A stretch of 64,000 nt of DNA from assembly GCA_951406725.2 (NCBI GenBank), contig OX597835.1, forward strand, positions 3,286,001 to 3,350,000. Reading direction: 5' to 3'. The notes under the pieces were generated by a model. It was not told where the DNA came from. It searched no databases and saw nothing but the letters and a program-made list of their open reading frames with translations. Shown here piece by piece: positions 3,205 to 49,526 of this stretch. This DNA is from Octopus vulgaris. Taxonomy: Eukaryota. A program made the translations under genes and the position numbers. Position 1 is the first letter of the stretch, and every line of letters begins with the position of its first letter.

Positions 3205-3418
3205 TTAGATGGTAAATTTACGAGAAAAAACCAGAAAAGCGATTACGGTTTGGACTATAATGTTATTAGTCACGTGAACCGAACCAGCCATATCTTTACG
3301 ACACGCGCAATAATCTCTTTGTTTCATACAGTCGTAACCGGCGCAGCATCTACATCTTTTATGTGGTCCGTGACCAGCACATGGACCTCTTGAACATGAA
3401 CTTCTCTTCAACATTTCA
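3205..3418 (-). CDS. Cys-rich peptide gene copy 1, mature-peptide exon: (S)EMLKR|SSCSRGPCAGHGPHKRCRCCAGYDCMKQRDYCACRKDMAGSVHVTNNIIVQTVIAFLVFSRKFTI*
   Basis: Acceptor tattttgtatttacag|T GAA ATG (phase 2), KR dibasic site, 8 Cys conserved with the paralogous exons at 33132-33267 and 61449-61662. Confidence 0.85.
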
Positions 3419-4800: not shown

Positions 4801-4836
<36 letters not shown>

Positions 4837-5089
4837 GTTAAATTGATAGATACAACTGAGTGCGCAAACAAAAATATGAGACACAGCCTAGTGCTTTTTT
4901 ATGTTGATAAGCCTGGTACTTATTCTACTAGTTTGTTCTTGTGATACCAATATGTTATGGGGATGTAAATAAATGAAAAGCATTTGTGAAACAGTTATGA
5001 GTGTAAAACCAGAGACAAAGACACATACATACACTTACATATATACATACATATATATAAGATTGATTTGTTTCAGTTCCTGTCTACGA

Positions 5090-5515
5090 AATCCATATAT
5101 ATACATACACACACACACACACATACACAAAGATAAATTGATAGATACAACTGAGTGGGAAAACAAAAATAAGAGACACCGCCTAGTGGGTTTTTTTTAT
5201 TTTGATATTCCTGGTACTTATTCTATCAGTTTCTTCTGACACCAGTAAGTTATGGGGATTTAAATAAACCAACACTAGTTGTGAAGCAGTGATGAGGGAG
5301 AAACGCAAAGACACACTCATAGACTTACATTTATATATACATATATATATACAATTCATTTCTTTCAATTTCTGTCTAAAGAATCCACTGACAAGGCTTT
5401 GGTTGGTCTGAGGCTATAGCAGAAGACACATGCCAAGTTACCACACAGTGGGACTGAACTGAGGACCATGTGTTTTGGAACCAAGTTTGTTACCACACAG
5501 CCACACCTGCACCTA
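5090..5515 (-). mobile_element. tRNA-derived SINE (abundant family with internal CA/TA microsatellite), degenerate; partial tandem copy at ~4830-5090
   Basis: Head gcaggtgtggctgtgtggtaa...agttcagtcccactgtgtgg and body aaagccttgtcagtggatt...gaaattgaaagaa match the copies at 19150-19630 and 22495-22895. Confidence 0.65.
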
Positions 5516-6269: not shown

Positions 6270-6540
6270 GTCAATAAATACTTGCCCATTACATTTTTAA
6301 TCAACCAAATATGAACCATTTTGTTTCACAATGATCTCAATCTATCATTTAACTTGAAAATACCCTCTTCCCAGAATTGAAGTGGTTTCATGGCAAAGAA
6401 TTCATCAAGGTATCCTCTTATGTCATCCAAGGAATTGAAATTTTTACCATTAAGACTATTCTGCAGGGACAGAAATAAGTGAAAATCCGAAGGAGCAATA
6501 TCTAGTGAATACGCAGCCGAGCTGCAGCAATTTTTGTCTG
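6270..6540 (-). mobile_element. Mariner (Tc1/mariner) transposase 3' fragment
   Basis: AYSLDIAPSDFHLFLSLQNSLNGKNF...FWEEGIFKL corresponds to the mariner YSPDLAPSD motif and C-terminus. Confidence 0.85.
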
Positions 6541-6634
6541 ATTCCCAAAGCATCAAGTGCCGAAAATGAACTTTCTTATCTTGCCAATACTAAATTAATT
6601 ACATTTGCATGAGACGTACATATGTTGTTCTTAC

Positions 6635-6683
6635 CTCATATTTACTCTCCTGAAACCTATCTCTTGATGGAAGGGAGCGACAT
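6635..6683 (-). CDS. Cys-rich peptide gene copy 1, propeptide exon (49 bp): (N)VAPFHQEIGFRRVNM(S)
   Basis: atatctcttttag|AT...AG|gtaaga. Phase 1 in and phase 2 out, matching the neighbouring exons exactly. Confidence 0.8.
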
Positions 6684-6780: not shown

Positions 6781-9700
6781 TAATTCATTGAATAGAGGAG
6801 AATGTATCAAATGGAGGATAATGTATAATTCATTGAATAGAGGAGAATGTATCAAATGGAGGAAAATGTATAATTCATTGAATAGAGGAGAATGTATCAA
6901 ATGGAGGATAATGTATAATTCATTGAATGGAGGAGAATGTATCAAATGGAGGATAATGTATAATTCATTGAATAGAGGAGAATGTACCAAATGGAGGATA
7001 ATGTATAATTCATTGAATGGAGGAGAATGTATCAAATGGAGGATAATGTATAATTCATTGAATGGAAGAGAATGTATCAAATGGAGGATAATGTATAATT
7101 CATTGAATAGAGGAGAATGTATCATATGGAGAATAATGTATAATTCATTGAATAGAGGAGAACGTATCAAATGGAGGATAATGTATAATTCATTGAATAG
7201 AGGAGAATGTATCAAATGGAGGATAATGTATAATTCATTGAATAGAGGAGAATGTATCAAATGGAGGATAATGTATAATTCATTGAATAGAGGAGAATGT
7301 ATCAAATGGAGGATAATGTATAATTCATTGAATAGAGGAGAATGTATCAAATGGAGGATAATGTATAATTCATTGAATAGAGGAGAATGTATCAAACGGA
7401 GGATAATGTATAATTCATTGAATAGAGGAGAATGTATCAAATGGAGGATAATGTATAATTCATTGAATGGAGGAGAATGTATCAAATGGAGGATAATGTA
7501 TAATTCATTGAATAGAGGAGAATGTATCAAATGGAGGATAATGTATAATTCATAATGTATCATTGAATAGAGGAGAATGTATCAAATGGAGGATAATGTA
7601 TAATTCATTGAATAGAGGAGAATGTATCAAATGGAGGATAATGTATAATTCATTGAATAGAGGAGAATGTATCAAATGGAGGATAATGTATAATTCATTG
7701 AATAGAGGAGAATGTATCAAATGGAGGATAATGTATAATTCATTGAATGGAGGAGAATGTATCAAATGGAGGATAATGTATAATTCATTGAATAGAGGAG
7801 AATGTATCAAATGGAGGATAATGTATAATCCATTGAATAGAGGAGAATGTATCAAATGGAGGATAATGTATAATTCATTGAATAGAGGAGAATGTATCAA
7901 ATGGAGGATAATGTATAATCCATTGAATAGAGGAGAATGTATCAAATGGAGGATAATGTATAATTCATTGAATAGAGGAGAATGTATCAAATGGAGGATA
8001 ATGTATAATTCATTGAATAGAGGAGAATGTATCAAATGGAGGATAATGTATATTCATTGAATAGAGAGAATGTATCAAATGGAGGATAATGATAATGTAA
8101 TGTATAATTCATTGAATAGAGGAGTATGAATGTATCAAATGGAGGATAATGTATAATTCATTGAATAGAGGAGAATGTATCAAATGGAGGATAATGTATA
8201 ATTCATTGAATAGAGGAGAATGTATCAAATGGAGGATAATGTATAATTCATTGAATAGAGGAGAATGTATCAAATGGAGGATAATGTATAATTCATTGAA
8301 TAGAGGAGAATGTATCAAATGGAGGATAATGTATAATTCATTGAATAAGGAGAATGTATCAAATGGAGGATAATGTAATTCATTGAATAGAGGAGAATGT
8401 ATCAAATGGAGGATAATGTATAATTCATTGAATAGAGGAGAATGTATCAAATGGAGGATAATGTATAATTCATTGAATAGAGGAGAATGTATCAAATGGA
8501 GGATAATGTATAATTCATTGAATAGAGGAGAATGTATCAAATGGAGGATAATGTATAATTCATTGAATAGAGGAGAATGTATCAAATGGAGGATAATGTA
8601 TAATTCAAATGGAGGATAAATGTATAAATTCATTGAATTCATTGAATGAGGAGAATGTATCAAATGGAGGATAATGTATAATTCATTGAATAGAGGAGAA
8701 TGTATCAAATGGAGGATAATGTATAATTCATTGAATGGAGGAGAATGTATCAAATGGAGGATAATGTATAATTCATTGAATAGAGGAGAATGTATCAAAT
8801 GGAGGATAATGTATAATTCATTGAATAGAGGAGAATGTATCAAATGGAGGATAATGTATAATTCATTGAATAGAGGAGAATGTATCAAATGGAGGATAAT
8901 GTATAATTCATTGAATAGAGGAGAATGTATCAAATGGAGGATAATGTATAATTCATTGAATAGAGGAGAATGTATCAAATGGAGGATAATGTATAATTCA
9001 TTGAATAGAGGAGAATGTATCAAATGGAGGATAATGTATAATTCATTGAATGAGGAGAATGTATCAAATGGAGGATAATGTATAATTCATTGAATAGAGG
9101 AGAATGTATCAAATGGAGGATAATGTATAATTCATTGAATGAGGAGAATGTATCAATGGAGGATAATGATCATGAATAGAGGAGAATGTATCAAATGGAG
9201 GATAGGATGTATAATTCATTGAATAGAGGAGAATGTATCAAATGGAGGATAATGTATAATTCATTGAATAGAGAGAATGTATCAAATGGAGGATAATGTA
9301 TAATTCATTGAATGGAGGAGAATGTATCAAATGGAGGATAATGTATAATTCATTGAATGGGGAGAATGTATCAAATGGAGGATAATGTATAATTCATTGA
9401 ATGAGGAGAATGTATCAAATGGAGGATAATGTATAATTCATTGAATAGAGGAGAATGTATCAAATGGAGGATAATGTATAATTCATTGAATAGAGGAGAA
9501 TGTATCAAATGGAGGATAATGTATAATTCATTGAATAGAGGAGAATGTATCAAATGGAGGATAATGTATAATTCATTGAATAGAGGAGAATGTATCAAAT
9601 GGAGGATAATGTATAATTCATTGAATAGAGGAGAATGTATCAAATGGAGGATAATGTATAATTCATTGAATAGAGGAGAATGTATCAAATGGAGGATAAT

Positions 9701-11525
9701 GTATAATTCATTGAATAGAGGAGAATGTATCAAATGGAGGATAATGTATAATTCATTGAGGAGAATGTATCAAATGGAGGATAATGTATAATTCATTGAA
9801 TAGGAGAATGTATCAAATGGAGGATAATGTATAATTCATTGAATGGAGGGAGAATGTATCAAATGGAGGATAATGTATAATTCATTGAATAGAGGAGAAT
9901 GTATCAAATGGAGGATAATGTATAATTCATTGAATAGAGGAGAATGTATCAAATGGAGGATAATGTATAATTCATTGAATGGAGGAGAATGTATCAAATG
10001 GAGGATAATGTATAATTCATTGAATGGAGGAGAATGTATCAAATGGAGGATAATGTATAATTCATTGAATAGAGGAGAATGTATCAAATGGAGGATAATG
10101 TATAATTCATTGAATGGAGGAGAATGTATCAAATGGAGGATAATGTATAATTCATTGAATGGAGGAGAATGTATCAAATGGAGGATAATGTATAATTCAT
10201 TGAATAGAGGAGAATGTATCAAATGGAGGATAATGTATAATTCATTGAATAGAGGAGAATGTATCAAATGGAGGATAATGTATAATTCATTGAATAGAGG
10301 AGAATGTATCAAATGGAGGATAATGTATAATTCATTGAATAGAGGAGAATGTATCAAATGGAGGATAATGTATAATTCATTGAATAGAGGAGAATGTATC
10401 AAATGGAGGATAATGTATAATTCATTGAATAGAGGAGAATGTATCAAATGGAGGATAATGTATAATTCATTGAATAGAGGAGAATGTATCAAATGGAGGA
10501 TAATGTATAATTCATTGAATAGAGGAGAATGTATCAAATGGAGGATAATGTATAATTCATTGAATAGGAGGAGAATGTATGTATCAAATGGAGGATAATG
10601 TATAATTCATTGAATAGGAGAATGTAGAGTCTATCAAATGGAGGATAATGTATAATCATTGAATGAGAGAATGTATCAAATGGAGGATAATGTATAATTC
10701 ATTGAATAGAGGAGAATGTATCAAATGGAGGATAATGTATAATTCATTGAATAGAGGAGGAGGATAATGTATAATTCATTGAATAGGAGGAGAATGTATC
10801 AAATGGAGGATAATGTATAATTCATTGAATAGAGGAGAATGTATCAAATGGAGGATAATGTATAATTCATTGAATAGAGGAGAATGTATCAAATGGAGGA
10901 TAATGTATAATTCATTGAATAGAGGAGGAATGTATCAAATGGAGGATAATGTATAATTCATTGAATAGAGGAGAATGTATCAAATGGAGGATAATGTATA
11001 ATTCATTGAATGAAGAATGTATCAAATGGAGGTATAATGAATAGAGGAATGTATCAAATGGAGGATAATGTATAATTCAAATGGAGGATAATGTATAATT
11101 CATTGAATAGAGGAGAATGTATCAAATGGAGGATAATGTATAATTCATTGAATAGAGGAGAATGTATCAAATGGAGGATAATAGAGGAGAATGTATCAAA
11201 TATAATTCATTGAATAGAGGAGAATGTATCAAATGGAGGATAATGTATAATTCATTGAATAGAGGAGAATGTATCAAATGGAGGATAATGTATAATTCAT
11301 TGAATAGAGGAGAATGTATCAAATGGAGGATAATGTATAATTCATTGAATGAGGAGAATGTATCAAATGGAGGATAATGTATAATTCATTGAATGGAGGA
11401 GAATGTATCAAATGGAGGATAATGTATAATTCATTGAATAATGTATCAAATGGAGGATAATGTATAATTCATTGAATATGTATCAAATGGAGGATAATGT
11501 ATAATTCATTGAATGAGGAGAATTC
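6781..11525. repeat. 45-bp minisatellite, ~105 units (aattcattgaatagaggagaatgtatcaaatggaggataatgtat), intronic
   Basis: Head-to-tail near-identical 45-mers with no spacers. Count estimated as ~4745/45. Confidence 0.97.
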
Positions 11526-12077
11526 CTCAAACACTAAATATTCATCTCTGTAGTGATGGATGTTTTTAATACACAAAAGGAGATAAAACCAATAAAGAGC
11601 AATAAAGGAATGGCAAGTGAAACATTATATACATCATTTGCTGATTCTCTTCCCTTAATTATTTTCATAATGAAGAATTCTAAAGCGTCGGCGTGTGAAA
11701 ATCGTTAGCTCGACAAAATATGCTTAGAGGAATTGCGTTCGTGCTTACGTTCTGATCAAATACAGGAGTAACAGATGAGAGCACACCACTAGAATTCTTC
11801 TCGATTTGTATATAAAAGATTCGTCAGTTTATTTTGTTAATTAAATGTCATATATTATATAGAAGAAGCGTAAATCCGTATACTCGGTCTAAGAGTAGTG
11901 TATATAAAAAGTGAGTTATTTATTTGAAAGCTGTTAAAACATATAAATGGAGTATAACCGAAAGACCGCTGAGGTAGCCTTATTCATTTTCCTCTTTCCA
12001 CCTTTCTATTTTCCCCCTTTTTTCCCCACTACATTTCACATTATTATAAAATAAAAGAAATTTACAATTATACTTAC

Positions 12078-12123
12078 TTTGTTTTACCGAGAAGGTGTAT
12101 GAAATGAATACATGTAAATTCAT
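12078..12123 (-). CDS. Cys-rich peptide gene copy 1, signal-peptide exon; 5' half replaced by satellite-like sequence in this assembly (reads MNLHVFISYTFSVKQ)
   Basis: 3' part GTA TTC ATT TCA TAC ACC TTC TCG GTA AAA CAA A|gtaagt matches copies 2 and 3. The upstream part and acceptor are replaced by 45-mer sequence. Confidence 0.55.
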
Positions 12124-12989
12124 TGAATAGGAGAATGTATCAAATGGAGGATAATGATAGACAAATATAGCAGGAGAGTCATTAATGGAGGATAATGCAT
12201 TTTTTTCATTGACAAAGAAGGAGAATGTCTATCAAATGGAAGTTTAGGTAACAATTCATCTTTTATGAGGAGAATGAAAATCCAAGATAATTACCATTGA
12301 ATAAACAATTAGTAAATGGAGGATAATGTATAATTGCCCCAATTGAATAAGGTAGAATGTATCAAATGGAGGATAATGTATAATTCATTGAATAGAGGAG
12401 AATGCCTTCAAATGGAGGATAATGTATAATTCATCCATACTGTTCAACACTGGAGGATGAATGTATAATTCATTGAATAGAGGAGAATGTATCTGACTTC
12501 TATAATGTATAATTTCTGTTGCAATAGAAATATGGAGTGTCACTTTGTATCTGACAGAATGTTCTTTGTGAAATGTACACAGTCAAAAGTATTTTTCTCT
12601 ATTTTCTATAACCAAAATCAGGCTTTGCTGCACATTTCACTGCATATTTGATTAACGTGTTGCACCGGCAGTATCTAACACCATACCTGAGTAAACATAA
12701 TTGTTTGCTGTTAAACACATGTGTCATTTGATCCGCGCACACAAACTTACGCAATCGACCTTTTCTGAAATACAACACTATCTGAAAGAGCATAATATTA
12801 CGTATGAATTTTAATTAACGGCCTCTCTAATTTCTTTTATCTATTCAGCTACTAATCTCGGCAAGGAAGAACTAGGCAAAGAAATCGATGAACAGGTACT
12901 CCAGGTATACAGCTTATACCAGAAGAATGTTATGCATTGGTACACATACGGCAATTACAAACGGTTTAAGCTCTACCACTACCACCATC

Positions 12990-13297: not shown

Positions 13298-13344
<47 letters not shown>

Positions 13345-13594
13345 GCATACATTTACGTTTGTGTATGTGTGTGTGTCTGTGTGTGTCTAATCTTTATGCA
13401 CCTTAAAACCATCATAGCATCTGATGTGGCTTTTTCACCCAGACAATGTTTTGAAAAGACACTCACATAGATTACATATCCGATTTGGCCCACCAAGAGC
13501 TGAAGATAAGTTTGTATGTATGTATGTATGTATGGATGGATGGATGGATCATTGGATAGATGGATGTACATGTATATATATATATATGTATACG

Positions 13595-13628
<34 letters not shown>

Positions 13629-13721
13629 CATCCATCCTTACATACATACAAATATTATATATATACGTATGTATATGTATATATATATATAAAGTTAAAA
13701 TTAAAATTAAGTTTAATATAC

Positions 13722-13823
<102 letters not shown>

Positions 13824-14412
13824 CAACACCATGATTTATACGATTTGATTCAATATTTACAAACTCTTGTTACGCAACAGCTGTGTGAAATAGTGAATAG
13901 AAAACATCATTAGAAGCTATATCAAATTTATGTCCCAAGTTACGCCAACGTTCGCCTTGGGAGACGTCAAAATTTTGAATTGAAACACGATAATGCTTAT
14001 ATGTTGCATTTTTACACGCCAATATATAAACAGAAGATACAAATATTACAGGCATCGCCCCCACACACACACTAACTAAGCATAGACGCACATAGGGATA
14101 TACGCATGCGCAAATGAAGACACGGACAATAGAAATACAAAATGGCTGACCGTTAGTAAAGAGGGACACACAAATAAGAAAGAAGAAAGCAAAGGACCAC
14201 TGATGCGGTTACAGGACTGTGACGAAAGAACTTTGGCCGAAATAAGATTATGTTTAATGTAAAAAATAACTAACACTGAAGCAAAGTAACACCAAATATA
14301 TAGTGCGTGTGTTTTTATTATTCGAGAGGGTAAAATGACCATTCCGAAATGCAACAATATCTGTTTCAATACATGATTTCACATAAAAATCTTGCACCAC
14401 ATATATATAAAC

Positions 14413-14413
<1 letters not shown>

Positions 14414-14472
<59 letters not shown>

Positions 14473-14486
14473 TTAATAATAATAAT

Positions 14487-14520
<34 letters not shown>

Positions 14521-14577
14521 TTAATGATAATAATAATAATAATAATGATAATAATAATAATAATAATAATAACATTA

Positions 14578-14635
<58 letters not shown>

Positions 14636-14666
14636 CATTATTATAATAATCATAATAATAATAATC

Positions 14667-14709
<43 letters not shown>

Positions 14710-14732
14710 TAATAATAATAATATTAATACGG

Positions 14733-14783
<51 letters not shown>

Positions 14784-14837
14784 GTAATAATGATGATAAT
14801 AATAATAATAATAATAGTAATAATAAAAATAATAATG

Positions 14838-14899
<62 letters not shown>

Positions 14900-14938
14900 A
14901 AGAAGAAGAAAAGAAGAAGAAGAAGAAGAATATTAATG

Positions 14939-15005
<67 letters not shown>

Positions 15006-15015
15006 TAATAATAAT

Positions 15016-15107
<92 letters not shown>
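14414..15107. repeat. (AAT)n/(GAA)n compound microsatellite
   Basis: Directly visible. Counterpart at ~39770-40405 and 41175-41217. Confidence 0.95.
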
Positions 15108-15476
15108 GGAAGGCGGCTGGACGTGACAGAAGCTGGACGTGTTTTTTTCGCTGCTCTGACCTGGCAGCAGCTAACCCAGCAGGACAACTGAAAAAACATC
15201 TGTAAAAAAACTGGAAGATCTACTGTTTTCTGTGAGTAAGTTGAATTTCCCTCAAAATAAGTTAAGGAACTTCCATATCTACAGCTTAGGACATACAACC
15301 GAACACCTAACAAAACAATTAGAAACATAAACATCTCCAATTTTGTGTGAACATTTTGTCGTCTCTTCTTCCTTGATTATCAGAATATGTAAAATTGCCT
15401 TTTATTGAAACAACACAATTAAATGCACGATAAAAAATTATGGAAGTAAGCACCTGCTAATATATACAAACGATGC

Positions 15477-15515
<39 letters not shown>

Positions 15516-15985
15516 GAAATTTAAAAAATCATCAACGTGAATATCAGATAATATGTGTGTGTGAGTATATATGTACATATACATATGTGTGTGTGAGTAC
15601 ACGTATACATGTGTGTGTGGGTATATATATGCATACATAGTCTTTTTTTCTCTTCCTACCATTAATTACAAATATAACAAGCTGAAAAAAGTAAACAGGT
15701 TTGACCTCTCCTGACCATGAATGTCCTTTGTCCCTTGGGCTATCTCTCCACCATCCGCTGAATCTATTTATAGACCCATAGAGCATGACCTCTTCACCAA
15801 TCACTGCCCCAAACAATGGTAGTAGTGGTGGTGATGGTGATAATGATAAAAACAAAAATAACAATAAGATACTGTTGGTACTACACATAAAACAATATCA
15901 TTGATGATGATGGTGCTGATGGTGATGGTGATGATGATAATAATGATAGTACTTTGCTGATAATCTATCTATCCATCTACACACA

Positions 15986-16029
<44 letters not shown>

Positions 16030-16459
16030 TCAGCCAACACAAACCTCACCTCCGCTCTTTAGATGTTAAGCAAATATGAAAGTATCATCTGACAGGCAAG
16101 AATTCTGGCGTTGAAGACAGCCAGCCAGCCAACCACCCAGCCAGCCAACGAGACAGACAGACACACAACTCAACCCGCTGCCAACGTACTGTGATGGTGA
16201 TAATGATAAAAACAAAAATAACAATAATAAGATACTGCTGTGACTACACATAAAACAATATCATTGATGAAGATGATGATGATGATGATGATGATAGTGA
16301 TGGTTATGATGATAATAATGATAGTAATAATGGTGATAATAATAATTGTGATAATAATGGTGATAATAATAAGCCGGCTTCGGCTGCTATAATGGTACGA
16401 TTATAATTGTAACGGCAATGATGGCCGTCTCCCTCCGAGTCACTCAAAGCTCAAAAATA

Positions 16460-16990
16460 TACCGGATATTGTTGTGAAAGACCAAAACAATAAAGTTTGC
16501 TTATTGATCGACATGACCATCCCCTGTGATCATAATATCTCGGCGAAAGAGTTTGACAAGCTCAGAAAATATAAAGACCTGCTCATTGAAATTGAGAAAA
16601 TGTGGCATCTCAAGGCGGTTACAATACCAGTGATCGTAGGAGCACTAGGAATGATCAAGAAGGGAACCGAAAGTAATATGAGAATGATCCCTGGCTAACC
16701 ATCCCTGCAAGAAGTGCAAAGGATTGTCTTAACTGGTACATCACACGTATTGAGAAGAGCATTGTCGATGTGAGAACTATTACTACCCATGTATTTTAAT
16801 TAAACTTTAAAAAAAATGAACGAGCTAGTGAGTTTAGTTTAATGGACCTACCAATGTATACGATGTGTTTCTTTGCCCTGGGAGTCGGGAAGACACTCGG
16901 CAAGAAATGGAAGCAAATTTGAAAGAAGAAGAAAAAAAAAAGATAGCAATAATAATAATTATAATAGTAAAAATAATAATAATAATAAAT
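16460..16990 (+). mobile_element. Dong/R4-type (RLE) non-LTR retrotransposon 3' fragment
   Basis: PDIVVKD...CLLIDMTIP...KLRKYKDLLIEIEKMW...IPVIVGALG is a PD-(D/E)xK restriction-like endonuclease C-terminus. Ends in an AAT-rich tail. Copy at ~42625-43140. Confidence 0.8.
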
Positions 16991-17449
16991 GCTGGAGTCG
17001 ATTCGTTTGACTAAAATTCTTTGAAGCAATGGTCTAGCATGACTGTAATCTCATGAGTGACAAATTAAAAGACGCTTCAAACAATTGATAACAAACATTA
17101 AGATGTTCATTACGATCATAAAATTCATCCGAAGGTTATGAAGCTTCATTCGATATTGAAGGTAGTGAATATTTTGATTTTGCAGGAAGTTTTGTTTGAA
17201 ATATTTAAGATGTAGCACATAATTGTAACTTAAAGGAGTGTAAAATATGTACTTGGCATGATTTGTAAGCGCAAATCAAAGCTTTTCATTTCATTCTTGC
17301 TTTTGTGATCCCTATAATATTATATTTCTTTTTACTGATTTTCTGCTTGTTTCAGTCATTGAAATATATAGCACTAATCTCTAGCCTAAAGGTTTTTTAT
17401 ACGCTTCTTAACAACCGATTTGTATTAACCAAACAGCAAGAGTAGAAAT

Positions 17450-17790
17450 GCTGGATTTCATCCAAAATTTACAGACTACAATGAGGCACATCCTCCAAAC
17501 ACAATCGAAGAATTCTCAAGGGAAAATTTGAAAAACTTGGTGTGGCTATTAAAATTCACAACAGAACCTGCGTAAAATGTGGAAGGGTTTACCTCTCAGT
17601 TGGAGGCCTAAAAAGACATGCTAAGAGAGTGCATCTGGTGGCACCTGTTTCTCCTGCCGGCCAGCACAGTTGTCCAGTAAGTAATTAAATGTGTAAAAGC
17701 TTGACTAGGCTTAAAACTCATATAAGGGCATCACATGACAACAATAATGAATCATTTCAGTAAATCTTCTTGCCCATGGCTTTACTCGTG
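17450..17790 (+). mobile_element. Decayed fragment with two C2H2 zinc-finger remnants, probably a LINE (RTE-like) ORF C-terminus
   Basis: CVKCGRVYLSVGGLKRHAKRVH then CPVSN*MCKSLTRLKTHIRASH (second finger broken by a stop). Copy at ~43600-43940. Confidence 0.5.
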
Positions 17791-18400
17791 TAACGAGGAT
17801 GCAGCTGTGATATATGTATATGTATATATGTGTGTGTGTGTGTGTGTGTGTACATTTCTGTTATTTCGGCCACTAGTCATTTCCCCAACTGCTGCCAACG
17901 AATCTAATCAACACACAAGACAGCTATTATGATCCACCTCACAAAAACCCATCACGTGGACTCTGTTGAGACTCGTAAGAAACAATTATAAACTTTTTTT
18001 TATTACACTTAACTTTTAAAAATATTTTTGATAAGGTTCGTTTTTTCAAGAAAAACCGAAACTTGAAAAATTTCTTAGAAAATTAAAATTTATCTTATAT
18101 AGTGGCGATTTCAAACTTCTTTTTTATAAATATATACCCACTCGTATACCACCCTCACCTATTATAAATATACATATAGTAAAGGTTGTTGGCCAACATA
18201 AAGTGTCAGCTGAATGTTACTATTGTTTAGCCCCAGGAAACATCGTCTTCTGGAGCTGAATAAGATTAACATTCGACTGCTGTGTTTTGTTGGCAATTAA
18301 CCTTTATTCTAGAGTACTCTTAGGGAATATCTACTGTTGATAGTTTTACAAATAGGAATTTTCCATTTTATGTACGTATGTATCTCTCTCTCTCTCTCTC

Positions 18401-18435
<35 letters not shown>

Positions 18436-19149
18436 ACAGCACGATTTATGCGATGTTAGTTTTGTTAGTTCATGTAGTTCGTGTAGTTCATGTACCTGGA
18501 CAGCTGTGAGAAATATTAATAAAAAAAATTGTAAGTTTAAGCAATATCAAATTTATGTCCTCCGTTACGTCAATGTTCTTCAGTGGGGACATGAATCTTC
18601 TGAATAAAAAAACGACAATGTCTATAAGCTGTTTTTTACACGCCGACGTATACTGATCCCAGAAAATCGCTGCTTCCAAATTGTTGCTTAAATACATGTT
18701 ATTCCTGCTCTAGCAGACACATTATCGAAGACATTAAAAACTAATTGCAGAAATAGTTATAAGTTCTAATGCAAATATATAATTGAGGTAGGAATAAAAT
18801 TTCAGAAGTATTTTCATTATTGTTTCTTGATAAAGTGGGAAAAGGACAACATTTTTGGAGAACTTACGACAAATATAACGCTGTAATATCCAACAGTAAT
18901 ATTTTCAATTGTTTCTTAGCAACTGATATGCATTAACCAAAAAACCAAAACTAGAAAAGCTGGAGTGCATCCAAAGAGTAAAGACTAAAATAATGCATAT
19001 TCTGCAAATAAAATGGATGGGATGTAAAACGAGAATTTGTAAATCCTTAAGGGTATTCTCGCTTTTTGAGGTTCTTCGGCTGTACGCATGCGCACAGGCA
19101 ACAAACAAATGAAGCTTATACAGACTCGTTCTACATCTCATCTACTTAT

Positions 19150-19630
<481 letters not shown>

Positions 19631-19634
19631 CAAA

Positions 19635-19810
19635 CAACATCATTACCATAACATATTCTGTATATTGTTATTACTAATTTACATACAGCCACAATGAATA
19701 ATGTGTTAGATTCGAACGGTATTTATATAAAGAGTTCGGTGAAATTCCCTTGTGCAAAATTCAGACACGTTGGTGATGGTCATATAGGTGATGTTATCAA
19801 GAGAACTGTT
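19635..19810 (-). other. Older diverged paralog of the peptide-gene promoter/exon 1
   Basis: TATAAATACCGTTCGAATCTAACA...cattgtggctgt...gtaata...ATGTTATGgtaatg aligns to 12990-13180. Copy at ~45790-45970. Confidence 0.6.
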
Positions 19811-19841
19811 GCAACATTTCTTTGCCCATAGCTTTCATATT

Positions 19842-19917
<76 letters not shown>

Positions 19918-19928
19918 ATATATATATG

Positions 19929-19997
<69 letters not shown>

Positions 19998-20000
<3 letters not shown>

Positions 20001-20297
20001 GAGGCGCAATGGCCTACTGGTTAGGGCAGCGTACTCGCGGTCGTAGGATCGCGGTTTCGATTCCCAGACCGGGCGTTGTGAGTGCTTATTGAGCGAAAAC
20101 ACCTAAAAGCTCCACGATGCTCCGGGAGGGGGGGTGATCCCTGCTGTACTCTTTCACCACTCTTTCTTCTGTTGGCCTGCTCGCTTAGCCAGCGGGGTCG
20201 CGTCATTCGAAGGCTAAAACAATGCGAACGCATTGTGACCAGCGATGTGTAACTACATCTGACGGACTGGACGGTCACGTGATGATGATGATGATGG
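19998..20297 (+). mobile_element. tRNA-derived SINE
   Basis: ggaggcgcaatggcctactggttagggcagcg...ggtttcgattcccagaccgggc (A and B boxes), ending in (gat)n. Copy at ~49523-49825; related partial copy on the minus strand at ~21480-21715. Confidence 0.8.
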
Positions 20298-20434
20298 TGA
20301 TATATATATATATATATATATATATTGAAATCTGGTCGATTGCAACTTCGAAGCCACAGCATCCCGGAGTCTTGGGTTTTATTTTTCAAAAGAAACAAGT
20401 ACAGTACGAACCGTTCAAAATCTAAGGTTTATTC

Positions 20435-20720
20435 CAGGGGTTCTCAAACGGGGTTTAAATAAGATTTTTGGGGGTCTACGGTAAATTTTCATGGGCCATG
20501 AAAAAATGCTTGAGACCAGTAAAGCTTTTGTGCAATGAATTGGTTTATACGTCCAGAATACAAAAAATATTTTAATAATTTTTACACGAGTCCTAATAAT
20601 ATTTAATTATAAAATTACAGTAAGATTTTTAAAACGTGAAATGGCTACGGAGACCCCCAACCCGCCCAAGTAAAATAGGAATGAAAGGGGTTCATAGATA
20701 AAAAGTGATGAGAACCCTTG
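20435..20720. mobile_element. hAT-type MITE
   Basis: Imperfect TIRs CAGGGGTTCTCA...TGAGAACCCTTG with an 8-bp TSD gtttattc/ttttattc (one mismatch). Copy at ~49997-50282. Confidence 0.7.
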
Positions 20721-21032
20721 TTTTATTCATAGAAGCAAAGGAAAAACATGATAAGGGACCACTGAATGATTTCAAAGAATTTATTTCATAAAATTTATAT
20801 CATCTTGTAAACTGATTTATTGAGAACATATGACATGAAAAGGTTAACCCTTTTGTCACGAGATTTCTGTAGAAATACATGGTTTTTATTTCGTTTAATT
20901 TTGAAAATGATTAATAATTTAGTGAAATAACTGTCTTGGAATGTTTTCAGTGACCAAGGACCATCATGAACTCTCAACTGATATTTGCAACATGAACTAG
21001 CATAAAACTTTGAAGGAAAGTTTTAATTAAGA

Positions 21033-21336
21033 CTATCAGTATCGCCCGGCGTTGCTCGGGTTTGTAAGGGAAATAACTATATAAGCATGTTTAGAGAGTT
21101 ACTTCCCTTATATAATAGCAAAACAATGCACTAAAAATGGGAAAAAATTATGGTAAATTTTCTTTTTAGATCGTAGACTCATCGTAGACGCGCGTTAATA
21201 CCCAGAAGGGCTCGATATGAATCACGACTATAAGATACCCGCTTTTGGTTAAACTGCACCGCAAAATGTGGGAGTAGTTAGGAATCTAAATCGTAGGAGA
21301 CAGACACTCACACAACTTCACTTTTATATATAAAGA
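21033..21336 (-). mobile_element. Non-autonomous Helitron-like element
   Basis: Minus strand begins A|TCTTTATATATAAAAG and ends with hairpin CCCGAGCAACGCCGGG followed by ...ATAG|T (CTAG-like), no TSD. Copy at ~50583-50886. Confidence 0.65.
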
Positions 21337-22494
21337 TTACTTTTAACCCTTTTGTTAGCATATTTCTGCACAACTAGTGTACTTTGGTTTCATTAAATTT
21401 TGAAAAAATGAAGTTTATAAAATAACTTTGTCCTTTCTAAGTCTGTGTTTGGAATACAAATTCACAGGAAATTTCAATGGAAGTATAGGTTCCCCACCTG
21501 GACGGAACGCCAGTCCGTCGCAGGTGAGCTGCAAGATACAGGAAGAAAGAGTGAGAGAAATTTGTGGCGAAAGAGTCAGCAGAGGTTCGCCATTACCTTC
21601 TGCCGGAGCAGCGTGAAGCTTAGGTGTTTTCACTCATAAACACACACATCGCCCGGTCTGAGATTCGAATCCGCGATCCTTCGACCACGAGTCCGCTGCT
21701 CTAACCACTAGGCTAGAATTAGTTGTTATTAAGTGTAATAAAAATAAGTGAAATAGAACAAGTATGTGTATGTTTTAGTTTCTGGCAAAATGATTGCCCA
21801 TGCCCACCACCACTCAATATCTGTTTCTACCCAGGATTTTACACCCAGAAAAGCTGCAAGTGTGTCTATGTGGTAGAAATTTGCTTCCCAGTCACAGAGT
21901 TTCAGGTTCATCACTATAGAAAATGGGTTATTAGCTAATATTCAATTGGGTATACAACAAAATTTTACTATAGAATTTGTTATTCTGGGTAACTTTCTGA
22001 TACCCATAATAATATTTATGGCAAAATAGTCTTAATTTCATTTAAGGTTATGGGAAACCACAAACTATCCTTTCTTTCGCTTTGTTTACATTTTGCATAA
22101 AGGCGCAGTCTTCTCTCTTGCACACAGCATTGTATTTCTTCTTATGCCCAACTTTTCCCTCAAAATACTAGTGTTGTGTTTCACTTGTACTCTGACATTG
22201 CACATCCAGCTGAGCATGTTAGGTTTATTCCTCTCTAGCCTTCACATGTCTTCTGCATTTAGGACCCACATCTTACTACCCACTGTGTATGTATGTGTGT
22301 GTGTGTTACTATCTCTTTGCTTGGGCCTTTGCATGATTTCTGGTCTTTGGGAAACAAGTGAGGGTGTCTGGCTGAAGGGAATCTGCCACAACAAAATTCC
22401 ATCTAATCCATGGCTCCATGGAAAAATGGATGTTAAACTGATGATGATGATGATAATGGGGAATCTTGCAAAGCAAATGCTAAAATAAGACTAT

Positions 22495-22652
22495 ATGTGG
22501 TAAGTAGCTTGATTACGAACCACATGATTCCGGGTTCAGTCCCGCTGCATGGCAACTTGGGCAAGTATCTTCTACTATAACATCGGGCCAACCAAAGCCT
22601 TGTGAGTGGATTGGGTAGATGGAAACTGAAAGAAGCCCGTCGTATATATATT

Positions 22653-22689
<37 letters not shown>

Positions 22690-22895
22690 TTGTGTGTCTG
22701 TGTATGTCCCCCTCCCCAACGTCACTTGACAACCGATGCTGGTGTGTTTACGTCCCTGTAACTTAGCAGTACAGCAAAAGAGACCGATAGAATAAGTACT
22801 AGGCTTAGAAAGAATAAGTCCTAGGGTCGATTTGATCGACTAAATGTGGTGCTCCAGCATGGCCACAGGCAAATGATGGAAACTAGTAAAAGAAT
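22495..22895 (+). mobile_element. tRNA-derived SINE (same family as 19150-19630)
   Basis: gtggtaagtagcttg...ccgggttcagtccc...ggtgctccagcatggccacagg...gaaactagtaaaagaat. Copy at ~52035-52490. Confidence 0.8.
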
Positions 22896-23149
22896 ATATA
22901 CGTATATATATATATTTATAACGTGTGTGTGTGTTTCCATATGGCTTTGCATTTTCATGACTTCTGCAATCTTTCATCTTTTATATGTTTCAGACTTGCG
23001 GCTGTGGCCATGCTGGGGTACCCTATACTTACTTTTTTTTTATTTCCTTATGTCCTTCATAAGTAAAATAGTAGCATCAAGAAGAGAAGCCAAGCTAGGA
23101 TTGTCGTCGTCGTCGTCATTATTATTATTAATATTATTATTATTATTCA

Positions 23150-24493
23150 GTAGTTTTATTTTTATAGCGTGCCCTCACTTCACAACCGAGCGTAGCTCTG
23201 TGTGCCTTGGGTATGTGATGTGATTTCTTGTGATACTCTGATGGTTACTGTATGGAGAGTGTTCTGCGAAGGATGTGTGCAGTGCCTAGTAGTGCAATTT
23301 TCTGTATGTTATATGTGTTTCTAAGTCCTGGTGTATTTGTTATGCATTTGCCTGAATATTTTTTATTATGCCTAATGCACCTACTATGATAGGAATTGTT
23401 TCTGTTTTTAGATTCCACATTCTGGTTACCTATATTTCCAGGTCTTTGTATTTTGAAAGTTTTTCCATTTCTTTTAGAGACACGTTGTCGCCTCCTCGTA
23501 TTGATACATCAATTAGAAAGCATTTTCTTTTTCTTCATGATCTCTGACAACTATATCTGGTCTGTTGGCCTTGATTTCTCTATCTGTGTGTATTGGCATA
23601 TCCCAGAGGATGGTTGCTTTCACATTTTCTCTGACTTTTTCTGGTGTGTGCCTATACCATCTTTTTTCTGTTGTTATTCCATAATGTTGGCATAGCTTCC
23701 AGTGTATGTAGGTCCCAACTCTGTCGTGTCTGTGAATATATTCCTTCTTAGCCAGGACTGGGCAGCCAGATATAATATGATTTATTGTTTCTTGTCCATC
23801 TCCACATATTCTGCAGTTACTTGTTATATTTCTTTTCTGGTGGGGAGGCTTTGGTCTTGTGCTGATATTAAAAATCCCTGTCTCTGCTTTGAGTCCTGAG
23901 CTTCTCAACCATTGCTGTGATATTTCTTTGTCTATTTATTTTGCGTTTAGTTTAGTCCAGTATTTACCATGAAGGGGTTTTTCTTGCCATCGTTTTATCA
24001 TGGTTCGTTGCTGTTCTAGTTTTAGTTTGGATTTCATTTGTTTTATAGTTTTGTTGTTTCTTCTTCTTCTTCTTCTTCTTCTTCTTCTTCTTCTTCTTCT
24101 TCTTCTTCTTCTTCTTCTTCTTCGTTAGGTGGTATGATTTCTTTTTTGTACTTGTAAGCTACCTGAAATACTGAGAACAGTTTTTTGTTTTGCTCGTGTT
24201 TTGCCGCTATTTGTATCAGTTTTCCTTCCTTCTGAAGTAGATATTTTTTCAGTCCTATGGTGGTTATTTTATAGTAGTTTTCCAGCTGTATAAGGCCTCT
24301 ACCACCTTCTATACGTTGTATATATTGTATATATAGCCTTTCTATGTCAGATTTTGGATGATGCATCCTAGATCCTGTCATTATGTTTCTTGTTTTCCTA
24401 TCCATTTTGGTCAGTTCATTTAGTGTCCAGTTAAGGATATTGTAGCTGTAAATTATAACTGGGACGGCTAAAGTGTTAATACCTATTAAATTG

Positions 24494-24495
<2 letters not shown>
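23150..24495 (-). mobile_element. Dong/R4-type RLE LINE, 5'-truncated, frameshifted
   Basis: HPKSDIERLY...GGRGL, CRICG..ETINHIISGC (CCHC knuckle), RHD, RPDIVV (RLE). Flanked by (TTA)n tracts. Copy at ~53134-54545. Confidence 0.85.
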
Positions 24496-24570
<75 letters not shown>

Positions 24571-24572
24571 GA

Positions 24573-24653
<81 letters not shown>

Positions 24654-25079
24654 GTTATTGTTATTATTTTTTCCACACAGAATCATTTTTCTCTTCAGAA
24701 TGTCGAAGGTAGTACTAGCCTACATTGTTTACAGGTTGCGTTACTAACTCATAGCGACCTGACTAGAATTTATATATTTTTCACTGTGTGTAGTTCAGTT
24801 CCTTTCCGACATTCTTACGAGCGTTCGTAACCTCGTTACCACTGTTATTACAACACCGTTATACAGCGGGAGATATTCTCGTCGCCACTGATATGTCCTA
24901 CATTATGACAACGTATTCCGCCGCCTGCGTGACTGGCCCGTACGGCGTACCTCGCCGACTGACACTGCTTGCTGTGTCTGTCCACCATTTATCAGTAGTG
25001 GAACAGCCCACTTCTCACTTGGAGGTGTCCGCCACAACATGTATATACAATGAACTATCAACGAAAACTCATAGACACA

Positions 25080-26505
25080 CGCGACATAATAATCCAACTG
25101 TTTCTTCCAATCCTTTACAACACACTCGATCAAATAAGCAAAACAACAGATATAGGAATCAAGATGTCCTCTGGTTCAACTCGATCTTCTGTTTGCATGT
25201 TTCAACCAAGATCGCTGGAAAACTTTTGGACAAAGGTTTTCCTAAATCTAATCGGTATCATGCTATTTTTAATAGGCTTACCGTGAAGGTCTCCTACGCT
25301 AACTCTGCTAATTTTGAGTAGCTTATGCATCGTATGAACAGCAAAATGCGACGAAGGTTCAATAACCCAACTACTGGATCTAGCGAGCATACGCATCTGA
25401 ATACTAACAAAGGAGATCTAAACCGCAATGAAAAACACACCAGTTATAGTCAATGGTAGAAACACTTATGATAGAGCTAACACGGTAACAACGTCGATAA
25501 ATGGAGTCGGGACTGCCTTATATACAATTAAAAATGCGATAAATGCTCATGCAGAGAAAAATCAAAATGTCCATTGATGAAACTTTGTATGAGTACAAAT
25601 CTTGTATATAAATGTACCATGCTTACAAGGAGATGGCCGCATGTTTACATTGAGCAGACGGCTGCTTCATTTATCGTAATCTTGTTGCCATCTTTAAGAC
25701 AATCAATAAGACATCCTATATATTTGGCTGATTTTGTATGGCGACTGAAGGAGGCTAAAATGAAGTACAGCATATGCTGGTCCATGGTAAGGTACGCGAA
25801 ACCATACAATATAATTTCCAGAAGATGCCGTCTCTGCTCCTACAAATCTCTGTCTAATTTGTGGACTAATGACAAGACAATTAACAGACTTTCTGAAATA
25901 CTCTCGAGATGCCTAGACGCATAGGAATGTATTTTCGCAGAATGCAGGGGGAATGAACTTTGAGTAACTGCTAACAGAATTTATTTGAAGGTATGGATGA
26001 CTTAAGTCTACTTTTAACATCTCCATACTTACAAACACACAGTAGATAGTTAACTCGCTTTGTAATCATGAGCGCACCAAACCTCACGTGTACGTATGCT
26101 CACATTTCCGCGGATGCTTGTATGATCGAGTGTACTCGCACCATGCAGCTTGTCCGAGGACGGTAATACATCAATATATATTAACGGTTATTTCTAATAA
26201 TTTACTCGCTGTATTGCCTGTTCATTTCTCTTTTTTTTTTATCTGTAATTTCATTTTTCAACTTCTATGTAAATGAAGATATTTCCTCCACCTGGCTACT
26301 TTTCTTTCTACAAAACGAGACGTTATATTGCGGAATTGTTCTTTAACGAGTTGTAACTATTTATCACCCGATGAGACACATCTGCACCACCGGATGCTTC
26401 TGAACCAGTTTTTGAGTGTCCCACCCCTCAGGGTTCGATGGTAGATGTATGGAAACAATTGTCGTGATTAATAAATTCTCGTATATTCTATTTTTCCGTC
26501 TTTCA
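25080..26505 (+). mobile_element. Penelope-like element 3' fragment (degenerate)
   Basis: VLWFN...FPKSNRYHAIFNRLTVKVSYAN, CPL..LC..TNLVYKCT, VWRLKEAKMKYSICWS...PYNIISRRCRLC. Ends with a hammerhead. A truncated copy at ~55130-55782 marks the end of unit B. Confidence 0.75.
26362..26469 (+). ncRNA. Type I hammerhead ribozyme (core variant CCGATGA)
   Basis: atcac-CCGATGA-[stem II acatctgc...gtagatgt]-GAAAC-aatt-GTC-gtgat. Palindromic stem III ACAATTGT, stem I atcac/gtgat. Confidence 0.7.
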
Positions 26506-42460: not shown

Positions 42461-44527
42461 AGTGATGGTGATGATGATAATAATGATAGTAATAATGGTG
42501 ATAATAATAATTGTGATAATAATGGTGATAATAATAAGCCGGCTTCGGCTGCTATAATGGTACGATTATAATTGTAACGGCAATGATGGCCGTCTCCCTC
42601 CGAGTCACTCAAAGCTCAAAAATATACCGGATATTGTTGTGAAAGACCAAAACAATAAAGTTTGCTTATTGATCGACATGACCATCCCCTGTGATCATAA
42701 TATCTCGGCGAAAGAGTTTGACAAGCTCAGAAAATATAAAGACCTGCTCATTGAAATTGAGAAAATGTGGCATCTCAAGGCGGTTACAATACCAGTGATC
42801 GTAGGAGCACTAGGAATGATCAAGAAGGGAACCGAAAGTAATATGAGAATGATCCCTGGCTAACCATCCCTGCAAGAAGTGCAAAAGATTGTCTTAACTG
42901 GTACATCACACGTATTGAGAAGAGCATTGTCGATGTGAGAACTATTACTACCCATGTATTTTAATTAAACTTTAAAAAAAATGAACGGACAAGTGAGTTT
43001 AGTTTAATGGCCTACTATGTGTTTCTTTGCCCTGTGAGTCGGGAAGACACTCGGCAAGAAATGGAAGCAAATTTGAAAGAAGAAGAAAAAAAGATAGCAA
43101 TAATAATAATTATAATAGTAAAAATAATAATAATAATAAATGCTGGAGTCGATTCGTTTGACTAAAATTCTTTGAAGCAATGGTCTAGCATGACTGTAAT
43201 CTCATGAGTGACAAATTAAAAGACGCTTCAAACAATTGATAACAAACATTAAGATGTTCATTACGATCATAAAATTCATCCGAAGGTTATGAAGCTTCAT
43301 TCGATATTGAAGGTAGTGAATATTTTGATTTTGCAGGAAGTTTTGTTTGAAATATTTAAGATGTAGCACATAATTGTAACTTAAAGGAGTGTAAAATATG
43401 TACTTGGCGATTTGTAAGCGCAAATCAAAGCTTTTCATTTCATTCTTGCTTTTGTGATCCCTATAATATTATATTTCTTTTTACTGATTTTCTGCTTGTT
43501 TCAGTCATTGAAATATATAGCACTAATCTCTAGCCTAAAGGTTTTTATACGCTTCTTAACAACCGATTTGTATTAACCAAACAGCAAAGAGTAGAAATGC
43601 AGGATTTCATCCAAAATTTACAGACTACAATGAGGCACATCCTCCAAACACAATCGAAGAATTCTCAAGGGAAAATTTGAAAAACTTGGTGTGGCTATTA
43701 AAATTCACAACAGAACCTGCGTAAAATGTGGAAGGGTTTACCTCTCAGTTGGAGGCCTAAAAAGACATGCTAAGAGAGTGCATCTGGTGGCACCTGTTTC
43801 TCCTGCCGGCCAGCACAGTTGTCCAGTAAGTAATTAAATGTGTAAAAGCTTGACTAGGCTTAAAACTCATATAAGGGCATCACATGGCAACAATAATGAA
43901 TCATTTCAGTAAATCTTCTTGCCCATGGCTTTACTCGTGTAACGAGGATGCAGCTGTGATATATGTATATGTGTGTGTGTGTGTGTGTGTGTACATTTCT
44001 GTTATTTTCGGCCACTAGTCATTTCCCCAACTGCTGCCAACGAATCTAGTCAACACACAAGACAGCTATTATGATCCACCTCACAAAAAACCCATCACGT
44101 GGACTCTGTTGAGACTCGTAAGAAACAATTATAAACTTTTTTTTATTACACTTAACATTTAAAAATATTTTTGATAAGGTTCGTTTTTTCAAGAAAAACC
44201 GAAACATGAAAAATTTCTTAGAAAATTAAAATTTATCTTATATAGTGGCGATTTCAAACTTCTTTTTTATAAATATATACCCACTCGTATACCACCCTCA
44301 CCTATTATAAATATACATATAGTAAAAGTTGTTTGCCAACATAAAGTGTCAGCTGAATGTTACTATTGTTTAGCCCCAGGAAACATCGTCTTCTGGAGCT
44401 GAATAAGATTAACATTCGACTGCTGTGTTTTGTTGGCAATTAACCTTTATTCTAGAGTACTCTTAGGGAATATCTACTGTTGATAGTTTTACAAATAGGA
44501 ATTTTCCATTTTATGTATGTATGTATG

Positions 44528-44605
<78 letters not shown>

Positions 44606-45485
44606 TATAAAACAATAGCACGATTTATGCGATGTTAGTTTTGTTAGTTCTTGTAGTTCATGTACCTAGAACAGCTGTGAGAAATATTAATAAAATAATT
44701 GCATGTTTAAGCAATATCAAATTTATGTCCTCCGTTACGTCAATGTTCTTCAGTGGGGAATATGAATCTTTTGAATAAAAAAACGACAATGTCTATAAGC
44801 TGTTTTTTACACGCCGACGTATACTGATCCCAGAAAATCGCTGCTTAGAAATTGTTGCTTAAATACATGTTATTCCTGCTCTAGCAGACACATTATCGAA
44901 GACATTAAAAACTAATTGCAAAAATAGTTATAAGTTCTAATGCAAATATATAATTGAGGTAGGAATAAAATTTCAGAAGTATTTTCATTATTGTTTCTTG
45001 ATAAAGTGGGAAAAGGACAACATTTTTGGAGAACTTACGACAAATATAACAGTAATATTTTCAATTGTTTCTTAGCAACTGATATGCATTAACCAAAAAA
45101 CCAAAACTAGAAAAGCTGGAGTGCATCCAAAGAGTAAAGACTAAAATAATGCATATTCTGCAAATAAAATGGATGGGATGTAAAACGAGAATTTGTAAAT
45201 CCTTAAGGGTATTCTCGCTTTTTGAGGTTCTTCGGCTGTACGCATGCGCACAGGCAACAAACAAATGAAGCTTATACAGACTCGTTCTACATCTCATCTA
45301 CTTATTTGCTCATTTACTTGTTTCAGTCATTTGACTGCGGCCATGCTGGAGTACCGCCTTGAGTCGAGCAAATCGACCCCAGGGCTTATTTTTTGGAAGC
45401 CTACTACTTATTCTATCGGCCACTAAGTTACGGGGACGTAAACACACCACCATCGGTTGCCAAGCGATGCTGTGGGACGGGGGCA

Positions 45486-45623
<138 letters not shown>

Positions 45624-45997
45624 CATATGTACATAATTTCGACGGGCTTCTATCAGTTTGCGTCTACTAAATCCACTCACAAGGCCTTGGTCGGCCCGAG
45701 GCTAAGGTGCCATGCAGTGGGAATGAACCCGGAACCATGTGGTTGGCAGGCAAGCTACTTACCACGCAGCCACTCCTGCGCCTATACAAACAACATCATT
45801 ACCATAACATATTCTGTATATTGTTATTACTAATTTACATACAGCCACAATGAATAATGTGTTAGATTCGAACGGTATTTATATAAAGAGTTCGGTGAAA
45901 TTCCCTTGTGCAAAATTCAGACACGTTGGTGATGGTCATATAGGTGATGTTATCAAGAGAACTGTTGCAACATTTCTTTGCCCATAGCATTCATATT

Positions 45998-46041
<44 letters not shown>

Positions 46042-46044
<3 letters not shown>

Positions 46045-49460: not shown

Positions 49461-49471
49461 ATGTATATACG

Positions 49472-49526
<55 letters not shown>

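Follow-up and report, generated by a model that had tools for sequence, protein, structure and literature searches.

How does a minisatellite arise inside a gene, and do duplicated copies of one intron preserve the steps? This question is raised by a 64,000-nt stretch of the Octopus vulgaris genome (assembly GCA_951406725.2, contig OX597835.1, here C22, positions 3,286,001 to 3,350,000 of the forward strand), which we call the window; coordinates without a contig name count from its first letter. When the window is aligned to itself, one gene unit appears three times at about 93-96% identity, with the third copy inverted; intron 1 of copy 1 holds a long array of a 45-bp repeat. The sequence-only reading of the window had taken fewer than one, about two and about 105 units at this intronic site as successive captured stages of one expansion. 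We consider it about 75% probable that the array is instead a family-confined, neutral intronic minisatellite of local slippage origin, whose length differs between paralogs and whose length and flank in copy 1 carry consensus errors.

The array of copy 1 spans 4,742 nt with a 45-bp period and 93% matches (105.4 units as assembled), and it begins 98 nt from the splice acceptor of the pro exon. Each unit joins a 26-nt seed to a 19-nt second half (the 19-mer). We found 88 seed matches in the window versus 0 across 100 shuffles, and consensus 31-mers have a mean of 92.6 exact copies each in the assembly. The repeat sites of the window are as follows.

6782..11523, + strand: 45-bp minisatellite of copy 1 (period, unit counts, splice-site map)
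6782..7546, + strand: gap-free part of the array, 17 units with 11 substitutions (unit-by-unit alignment)
7547..11523, + strand: noisy part of the array with 49 gaps and 18 substitutions, likely a poorly polished consensus (unit-by-unit alignment)
36663..36733, + strand: copy 2 site, seed, 19-mer and seed, 1.58 units (paralog alignment)
58269..58294, - strand: copy 3 site, seed only, 0.58 unit, likely a contraction (paralog alignment, tree)

Intron 1 measures 5,394 nt in copy 1 versus 818 nt in copy 2 and 769 nt in copy 3, which bears out the claim that the array stretches the signal-to-pro intron from about 0.8 to about 5.4 kb. One full unit plus seed in copy 2 (71 nt) and the seed alone in copy 3 (26 nt) were likewise confirmed. 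The claim of about 105 units in copy 1 holds for the assembly, but the exact count is untrustworthy (49 gaps and a scrambled flank).

Genome-wide searches covered the 2.8-Gb, 227-contig assembly, in which the window is C22:3286001-3350000. An exact 42-mer of the repeat had 78 matches, all within C22:3.268-3.371 Mb. Allowing at most one mismatch, at which diverged relatives of the unit could be missed, a 30-mer had 131 matches (96 forward and 35 reverse), all of them in intron 1 of family members, with 129 at 3.27-3.37 Mb and 2 at 15.9 Mb. Since all 131 fall in these two clusters of the gene family, the repeat is not a dispersed satellite with arrays at unrelated loci, and we rejected that candidate; the genome-wide search, which the sequence-only reading had proposed as a check, returned a locus-specific repeat. 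Hence, the minisatellite is real, confined to one family and of a single-locus type.

Three copies do share the site within the window, as had been claimed, but three more close paralogs lie outside it, and the six neighbours hold 0.58, 1.58, 3.58, 4.58, 26.58 and 105.4 units. Five of these sites are cleanly bounded (26, 71, 161, 206 and 1,196 nt); each has a length of 45n+26 nt and ends in the 26-nt seed. Of the arrays in the six-copy cluster that are cleanly bounded and hold at least one unit, 4/4 have this incomplete terminal unit; the end of copy 1 is scrambled. Of the 36 signal-exon matches in the genome, 35 were examined. Elsewhere in the family, both 15.9 Mb paralogs examined have seed, 19-mer and seed as in copy 2, and 14/14 paralogs at 7.56-7.72 Mb have a single seed and no 19-mer.

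The 19-mer resembles two stretches beside it. An ungapped alignment to the final 19 nt of the seed gives 15/19 matches in copy 3 and 17/19 in the first seed of paralog L050; with one gap, the 19-mer agrees with a motif downstream of the seed at 16/20 columns. Local scores are 13 and 16 for the seed tail and 11.5 for the downstream motif, and shuffles reached at least 11 in 0.4% and 12 in 0.15% of cases. The motif does lie where it had been noted, about 20 bp beyond the seed in copy 2 (21 nt past the seed in copies 2 and 3), and its resemblance exceeds chance, yet the ungapped seed tail fits better, so we do not retain the claim that the second half derives from it. What stands of the proposed local formation of the unit before amplification is the local origin from the 26-nt seed, the single-copy state of the 14 paralogs at 7.56-7.72 Mb. 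A local duplication of the seed and its tail is most likely the source of the 19-mer, and a hybrid junction using the downstream motif may be an alternative. Paralog L048 has a further short duplication of the seed tail. In the same paralog (L048:4410-4845, C22 about 15,894,400-15,894,850), two copies of a 28-nt stretch, seed included, enclose about 340 nt of unrelated sequence next to the short seed-tail duplication, a second rearrangement at the same site.

The order of events was read from a tree of the intron flanks without the array (22 rows, 849 columns), which left out the 2.5 Mb cluster, the C4 copy and the 3.39 Mb copy (too diverged or without the site); a longer left-flank tree was discarded because one paralog has non-homologous sequence there. 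We found the 15.9 Mb pair as sister to the six copies, whose clade has support of 100/100. This pair is 82-86% identical to the six and carries the same 19-mer with one substitution. A clade of the seven unit-bearing copies that excludes copy 3 was rejected by the approximately unbiased test (p-AU 2.7e-5), and two changes are needed. Because the unit exists in the outgroup pair and because of this test, the state of copy 3 is more likely a contraction, and the simplest reading is likely one birth of the unit before the clusters split, followed by a clean seed-to-seed loss in copy 3. Hence, the unit counts are probably not a time-lapse; the claim of successive stages fails, since the outgroup pair already has the unit and copy 3 nests among unit-bearing copies.

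Taylor and Breden in 2000 reportedly explained minisatellite birth by slipped-strand mispairing at non-contiguous repeats. Along such lines, the ancestral intron 1 would have held one 26-nt seed, as 14/14 paralogs of the other cluster do, and short duplications in the ancestor of the 3.3 and 15.9 Mb clusters would have produced seed, 19-mer and seed, the 19-mer coming most likely from the seed tail. Two seeds 45 nt apart could then mispair, so that whole units are gained or lost and a terminal seed is always left; the terminal seeds are observed, and the mechanism would be that of the published model. The six gene copies would have diverged independently, with a loss in copy 3, one to four units in three copies and 26 and roughly 100 in two; these counts are those of the assembly and their order is conjectural. 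Splicing is predicted to be unaffected because the consensus unit offers neither GT nor AG on the transcribed strand and the array lies 98 nt from the acceptor. Last, the assembly likely blended reads whose array was longer or shifted into the consensus of the copy 1 flank.

Public contigs of several sequencing runs also hold the repeat. The depth of contigs with repeat words was 7,934 in X1 (two contigs summed) versus 42-68 for apparent single-copy paralog contigs, 1,812 in X2 (two summed) versus 11-20, 2,643 in X3 (one contig) versus 42-51, 294 in X9 versus 8-10, and 82 in X10 (two summed) versus about 6-7. In X1, X2, X3 and X9, the depth of repeat contigs was therefore 30 to 120 times that of apparent single-copy contigs; the ratios vary between runs (about 120, 100, 55, 33 and 13), and depth is no copy number and is not assignable to a paralog. 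The variation hints at differences in unit number between samples. These depths suggest that tens of units exist in several runs and that long arrays occur outside the assembly, which argues against the array being an invention of the assembly. In X17 (organism F) no repeat-type contig was among the matches listed, where absence from contigs proves nothing and the coded organism may not be a separate species.

The reliability of copy 1 itself is a separate matter. No gap occurs in its first 765 nt (17 units, 11 substitutions), and 49 occur in the remaining 3,980 nt or so; for comparison, another paralog runs through 26.6 units (1,196 nt) without any. The disturbance continues to the right of the array.

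11524..11542, + strand: scrambled right junction, where about 85 nt of copies 2 and 3 are absent (alignment to paralogs)
12113..12537, + strand: patchwork of flank and repeat in place of the 5' part of the signal exon with its start codon, likely a consensus artefact (word map, contigs)

Within these 425 nt the sequence switches 17 times between paralog-type flank and repeat words; the order of the flank is kept, and the repeat words are in phase (11 blocks within 14 of 45 phases, p 8e-5). In copy 2, no repeat word occurs in the 372 nt homologous to this stretch. The pattern resembles what about nine uninterrupted units would leave when blended into the flank. Of the 36 signal-exon matches, 35 cover at least 91 of 101 nt, and copy 1 covers only 48. 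Even the clean right flank of copy 1 has six private indel events versus zero to two in the other five copies. Among the matches listed, public contigs of X1, X3 and X6 part from the window at 12112 and run on into a paralog-type exon, the whole covering depth at positions 12268, 12269 and 12272 has the paralog letter in 4/4 runs, and no patchwork occurs in the public contigs of four runs. Automated polishing of assemblies can overcorrect near repeats and break reading frames, according to the part of 10.1101/2021.07.02.450803 available to us. Hence, because of the noisy array, the patchwork and the contigs with paralog-type sequence, the length of copy 1 is untrustworthy; its exact length and its scrambled right flank are likely long-read consensus errors, which perhaps stem from two alleles of different length. 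The sequence-only reading had described the array accurately as assembled and had missed the patchwork. The reference appears to have lost the start codon of copy 1 through consensus error, and annotation would therefore miss the gene or call it a pseudogene.

Several points weigh against a neutral slippage array with a miscalled copy 1. The 570 nt between array and patchwork are clean, which an artefact does not explain; long arrays can decay through real small indels; contigs drop rare variants and copy 1 is one of six copies, so the contigs are support and not proof; and depth is not copy number, some depths are sums over two contigs and the sample behind the assembly may itself be among the runs. 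Copy 3 also branches first among the six, with weak support (80/77; 87/82 in an earlier tree without L050 and L062), and gene conversion could mimic its loss. That branching is what would be expected of a one-way series, from seed to seed plus a unit made by deletion or duplication from the downstream motif and then to amplification, with copy 3 ancestral. The seed-only state of 14/14 distant paralogs agrees with such a series, as do the fit of the downstream motif beyond chance (11.5, with scores of at least 11 in 0.4% of shuffles) and a hybrid 19-mer, begun by the motif and ended by the seed, that needs just one lost base. We nevertheless regard it as unlikely: the same 19-mer in both 15.9 Mb paralogs, outside the six-copy clade, would call for two identical births or conversion, and the seed tail fits the 19-mer better and without gaps.

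Neutral slippage is most likely the right reading of the array, and for copy 1 it meets two rivals of opposite kind. One holds that array and patchwork are real, the array having broken and been repaired by repeated template switching that overwrote the start of the signal exon and left a pseudogene in the sequenced animal. Damage in the one copy with the longest array, the preserved flank order and short-read contigs from other individuals, which are compatible with a private allele in the assembled animal, all fit. We think this very improbable, given the need for 17 switches within 425 nt that leave the repeat in register for about nine units, the open eight-cysteine frame of the copy 1 mature exon, the lack of the patchwork in contigs of four runs among the matches listed, and the overcorrection near repeats already described in the accessible part of 10.1101/2021.07.02.450803. 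The other has the assembly invent the whole long array by looping a short one many times; most of the array is noisy and its junction and nearby flank are scrambled, but the first 17 units have 11 substitutions in a pattern unlike that of the 26.6-unit array, and the depth ratios in X1, X2 and X3 exceed or approach the yield of the other five sites (35 units), leaving it barely any chance. A functional array, in which unit number tunes the expression of each peptide gene or multiplies a transcription-factor site, is distinctly improbable. It draws on the position in intron 1 of a rapidly evolving family and on a recurring unit variant that yields TGAATGGA, which we take to be a Capicua-type site. 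Only a minority of units carry that variant (copy 1, 5 of the first 17; 26.6-unit array, 4 of 26), distant paralogs contain the unit once as ordinary intron sequence, and counts span 0 to about 100 among copies with open mature exons. Human variable number tandem repeats (VNTRs) offer a precedent, with linked expression differences in 187 genes according to the accessible part of PMC8096271. A bolder version is very doubtful: the minisatellite would be a per-gene dial, its unit number setting paralog expression or promoting exchange between paralogs, within an octopus family, apparently not yet described, of at least 36 cystine-knot genes that are conotoxin-like and under positive selection. 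If true, the dosage of venom or defence peptides would shift within populations via repeat slippage.

Three further candidates were rejected. Splice-site amplification was discarded because GT and AG are both absent from the sense (transcribed) strand of the consensus unit; variants create three GT in the first 765 nt, one AG in the noisy part and none in the 26.6-unit array. Hairpin-driven expansion was discarded because the repeat folds no better than shuffles, with no stable fold beyond them for three units (z = 1.34 and 0.95) or for the seed-only site (z = -0.89). A serpin-like word in an opposite-strand frame beside the seed had no Pfam match.

The repeat itself is likely ordinary, of a known minisatellite kind. 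In the accessible part of PMC3389668, the slippage model for non-contiguous repeats has an incomplete terminal unit as its key feature. As in the Taylor and Breden model, to the extent that it is set out there, the octopus arrays end incomplete (45n+26), a spaced direct-repeat pair would have preceded amplification and a single locus type is involved; unlike in that model, the repeat pair here would first have been made from a single seed, and the states, which include a likely contraction, are those of paralogs in one genome and not of species or alleles. The multi-locus tandem repeats in dispersed elements described in that same part share one unit type at homologous sites and few loci with many units, whereas the carrier here is the intron of a duplicated gene and not a recognised transposon (no transposon library was run on the seed). 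Like the human intronic VNTRs of PMC8096271, as far as its accessible part describes them, this is a minisatellite-sized unit in a gene, with a depth hint of length differences between samples; unlike the VNTR expression quantitative trait loci reported there, it is known here from sequence and contig depth alone. The errors share with polishing overcorrection (10.1101/2021.07.02.450803) their clustering at repeats and the capacity to break reading frames; hotspots and small frameshifts are what the accessible part of that source describes, not an in-phase patchwork of flank and repeat. About 22 paralogs preserve a single seed, a first unit, a likely reversion and two expansions, which makes the family a compact test case for minisatellite birth, and the array is a ready paralog-specific marker.

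The host family is probably more interesting than the repeat. All three copies in the window are predicted to comprise a signal exon, then a pro exon of 49 nt, and finally a mature exon that encodes a dibasic site and eight cysteines; the splice sites are canonical and the phases match.

12078..12112, - strand: copy 1 signal-peptide exon, remaining 3' part and splice donor (paralog comparison)
6635..6683, - strand: copy 1 pro-region exon, predicted from sequence, 49 nt, phase 1 to phase 2
3205..3418, - strand: copy 1 mature-peptide exon, coding part, predicted from sequence, eight cysteines
37383..37446, - strand: copy 2 signal-peptide exon, predicted from sequence
36516..36564, - strand: copy 2 pro-region exon, predicted from sequence
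33132..33267, - strand: copy 2 mature-peptide exon, coding part, predicted from sequence, dibasic site then eight cysteines
57560..57623, + strand: copy 3 signal-peptide exon, predicted from sequence, the gene being inverted relative to copies 1 and 2
58393..58441, + strand: copy 3 pro-region exon, predicted from sequence
61449..61662, + strand: copy 3 mature-peptide exon, coding part, predicted from sequence

The signal exon has 36 genome matches at 84-100% DNA identity, 35 on C22 and one on C4. The family numbers at least 36 predicted secreted eight-cysteine peptide genes, at C22 2.46-2.60, 3.27-3.39, 7.56-7.72 and 15.89-16.03 Mb and at C4 141.45 Mb. Comparison of five of the six close paralogs gave 67-87% identity over the first 126 nt of the mature exon, versus 95.5-99% for the upstream intron, and the proportion of nonsynonymous differences (pN) exceeds that of synonymous ones (pS) in 10/10 pairs, which are uncorrected and non-independent. 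With mature exons at 67-87% and adjacent intron at 95-99% identity, the family merits its own study.

The spacing C-C-CC-C-C is the core of the inhibitor cystine knot, and it occurs in the aligned mature exons of the family and in other clusters. Two mature exons had no Pfam match. A search of PDB sequences gave a weak best E of 0.032, with spider peptides as six of seven weak matches, and an atlas search reached 0.85 at best. The mature-peptide model had a predicted local distance difference test score (pLDDT) of 64, a best Foldseek E of 1.2 and no VIA match. No homologue of the copy 2 mature exon was found among proteins of 78-2000 aa, and elsewhere two weak repeat-protein matches appeared. 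The weak PDB, atlas and structure matches, none of them significant, point to peptides of cystine-knot type. X14 contigs (a run guessed to be RNA) covered intron sequence with no exon joint, from which nothing follows for expression. We found no description of the repeat or of the peptide family in the literature covered, which excluded subscription papers, supplements and much of the cephalopod venom literature.

Conotoxin precursor genes have three exons, the third holding the mature domain, and lie in paralog arrays, according to the accessible part of PMC8152183. The octopus genes share the three exons and the arrays, and here also have a conserved signal exon and a hypervariable mature exon. 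Unlike the conotoxins of that source, as far as it could be consulted, they have no significant sequence or structure match and are known from sequence alone. The resemblance is probably convergent.

Some family members depart from the simple plan. The C22 signal exons at 3343536, 3368661, 3392015, 7697295 and 15910640 are each followed by two cysteine-rich mature-type exons; such exons might serve as alternative last exons, be orphans or belong to neighbouring genes. In one of them (L044) there are seven cysteines rather than eight. In the 2.46-2.60 Mb cluster, 9/11 signal-exon matches are without the start pattern used, none has the seed as matched, and most have an open mature exon.

The surroundings of the gene copies held further features. 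Intron 2 contains a fragment of a high-copy repeat (6329-6589, 36210-36470 and 58487-58747) with depth above 13,000 in all four runs; its translation is presumably mariner-transposase-like, though Pfam gave no such match. Other intronic tandem duplications have a period of 243-295 (4808-5378 and 59633-60209 in the window; L057:2958-3696; L062:3079-3568). Upstream of the signal exon, on the opposite strand, lies a conserved exon-like 48-nt stretch with AG/GT ends (12830-12877, 38098-38145 and the copy 3 equivalent). In the paralog left of the window (C22:3261257-3267000), comparison with copy 2 shows the upstream region interrupted by about 5.7 kb. The duplication unit reaches well past the gene (13300-25700 and 38600-55800, at about 94-98% identity), and TAA, TTC and TTA tracts are long, with lengths that differ between the duplicated copies.

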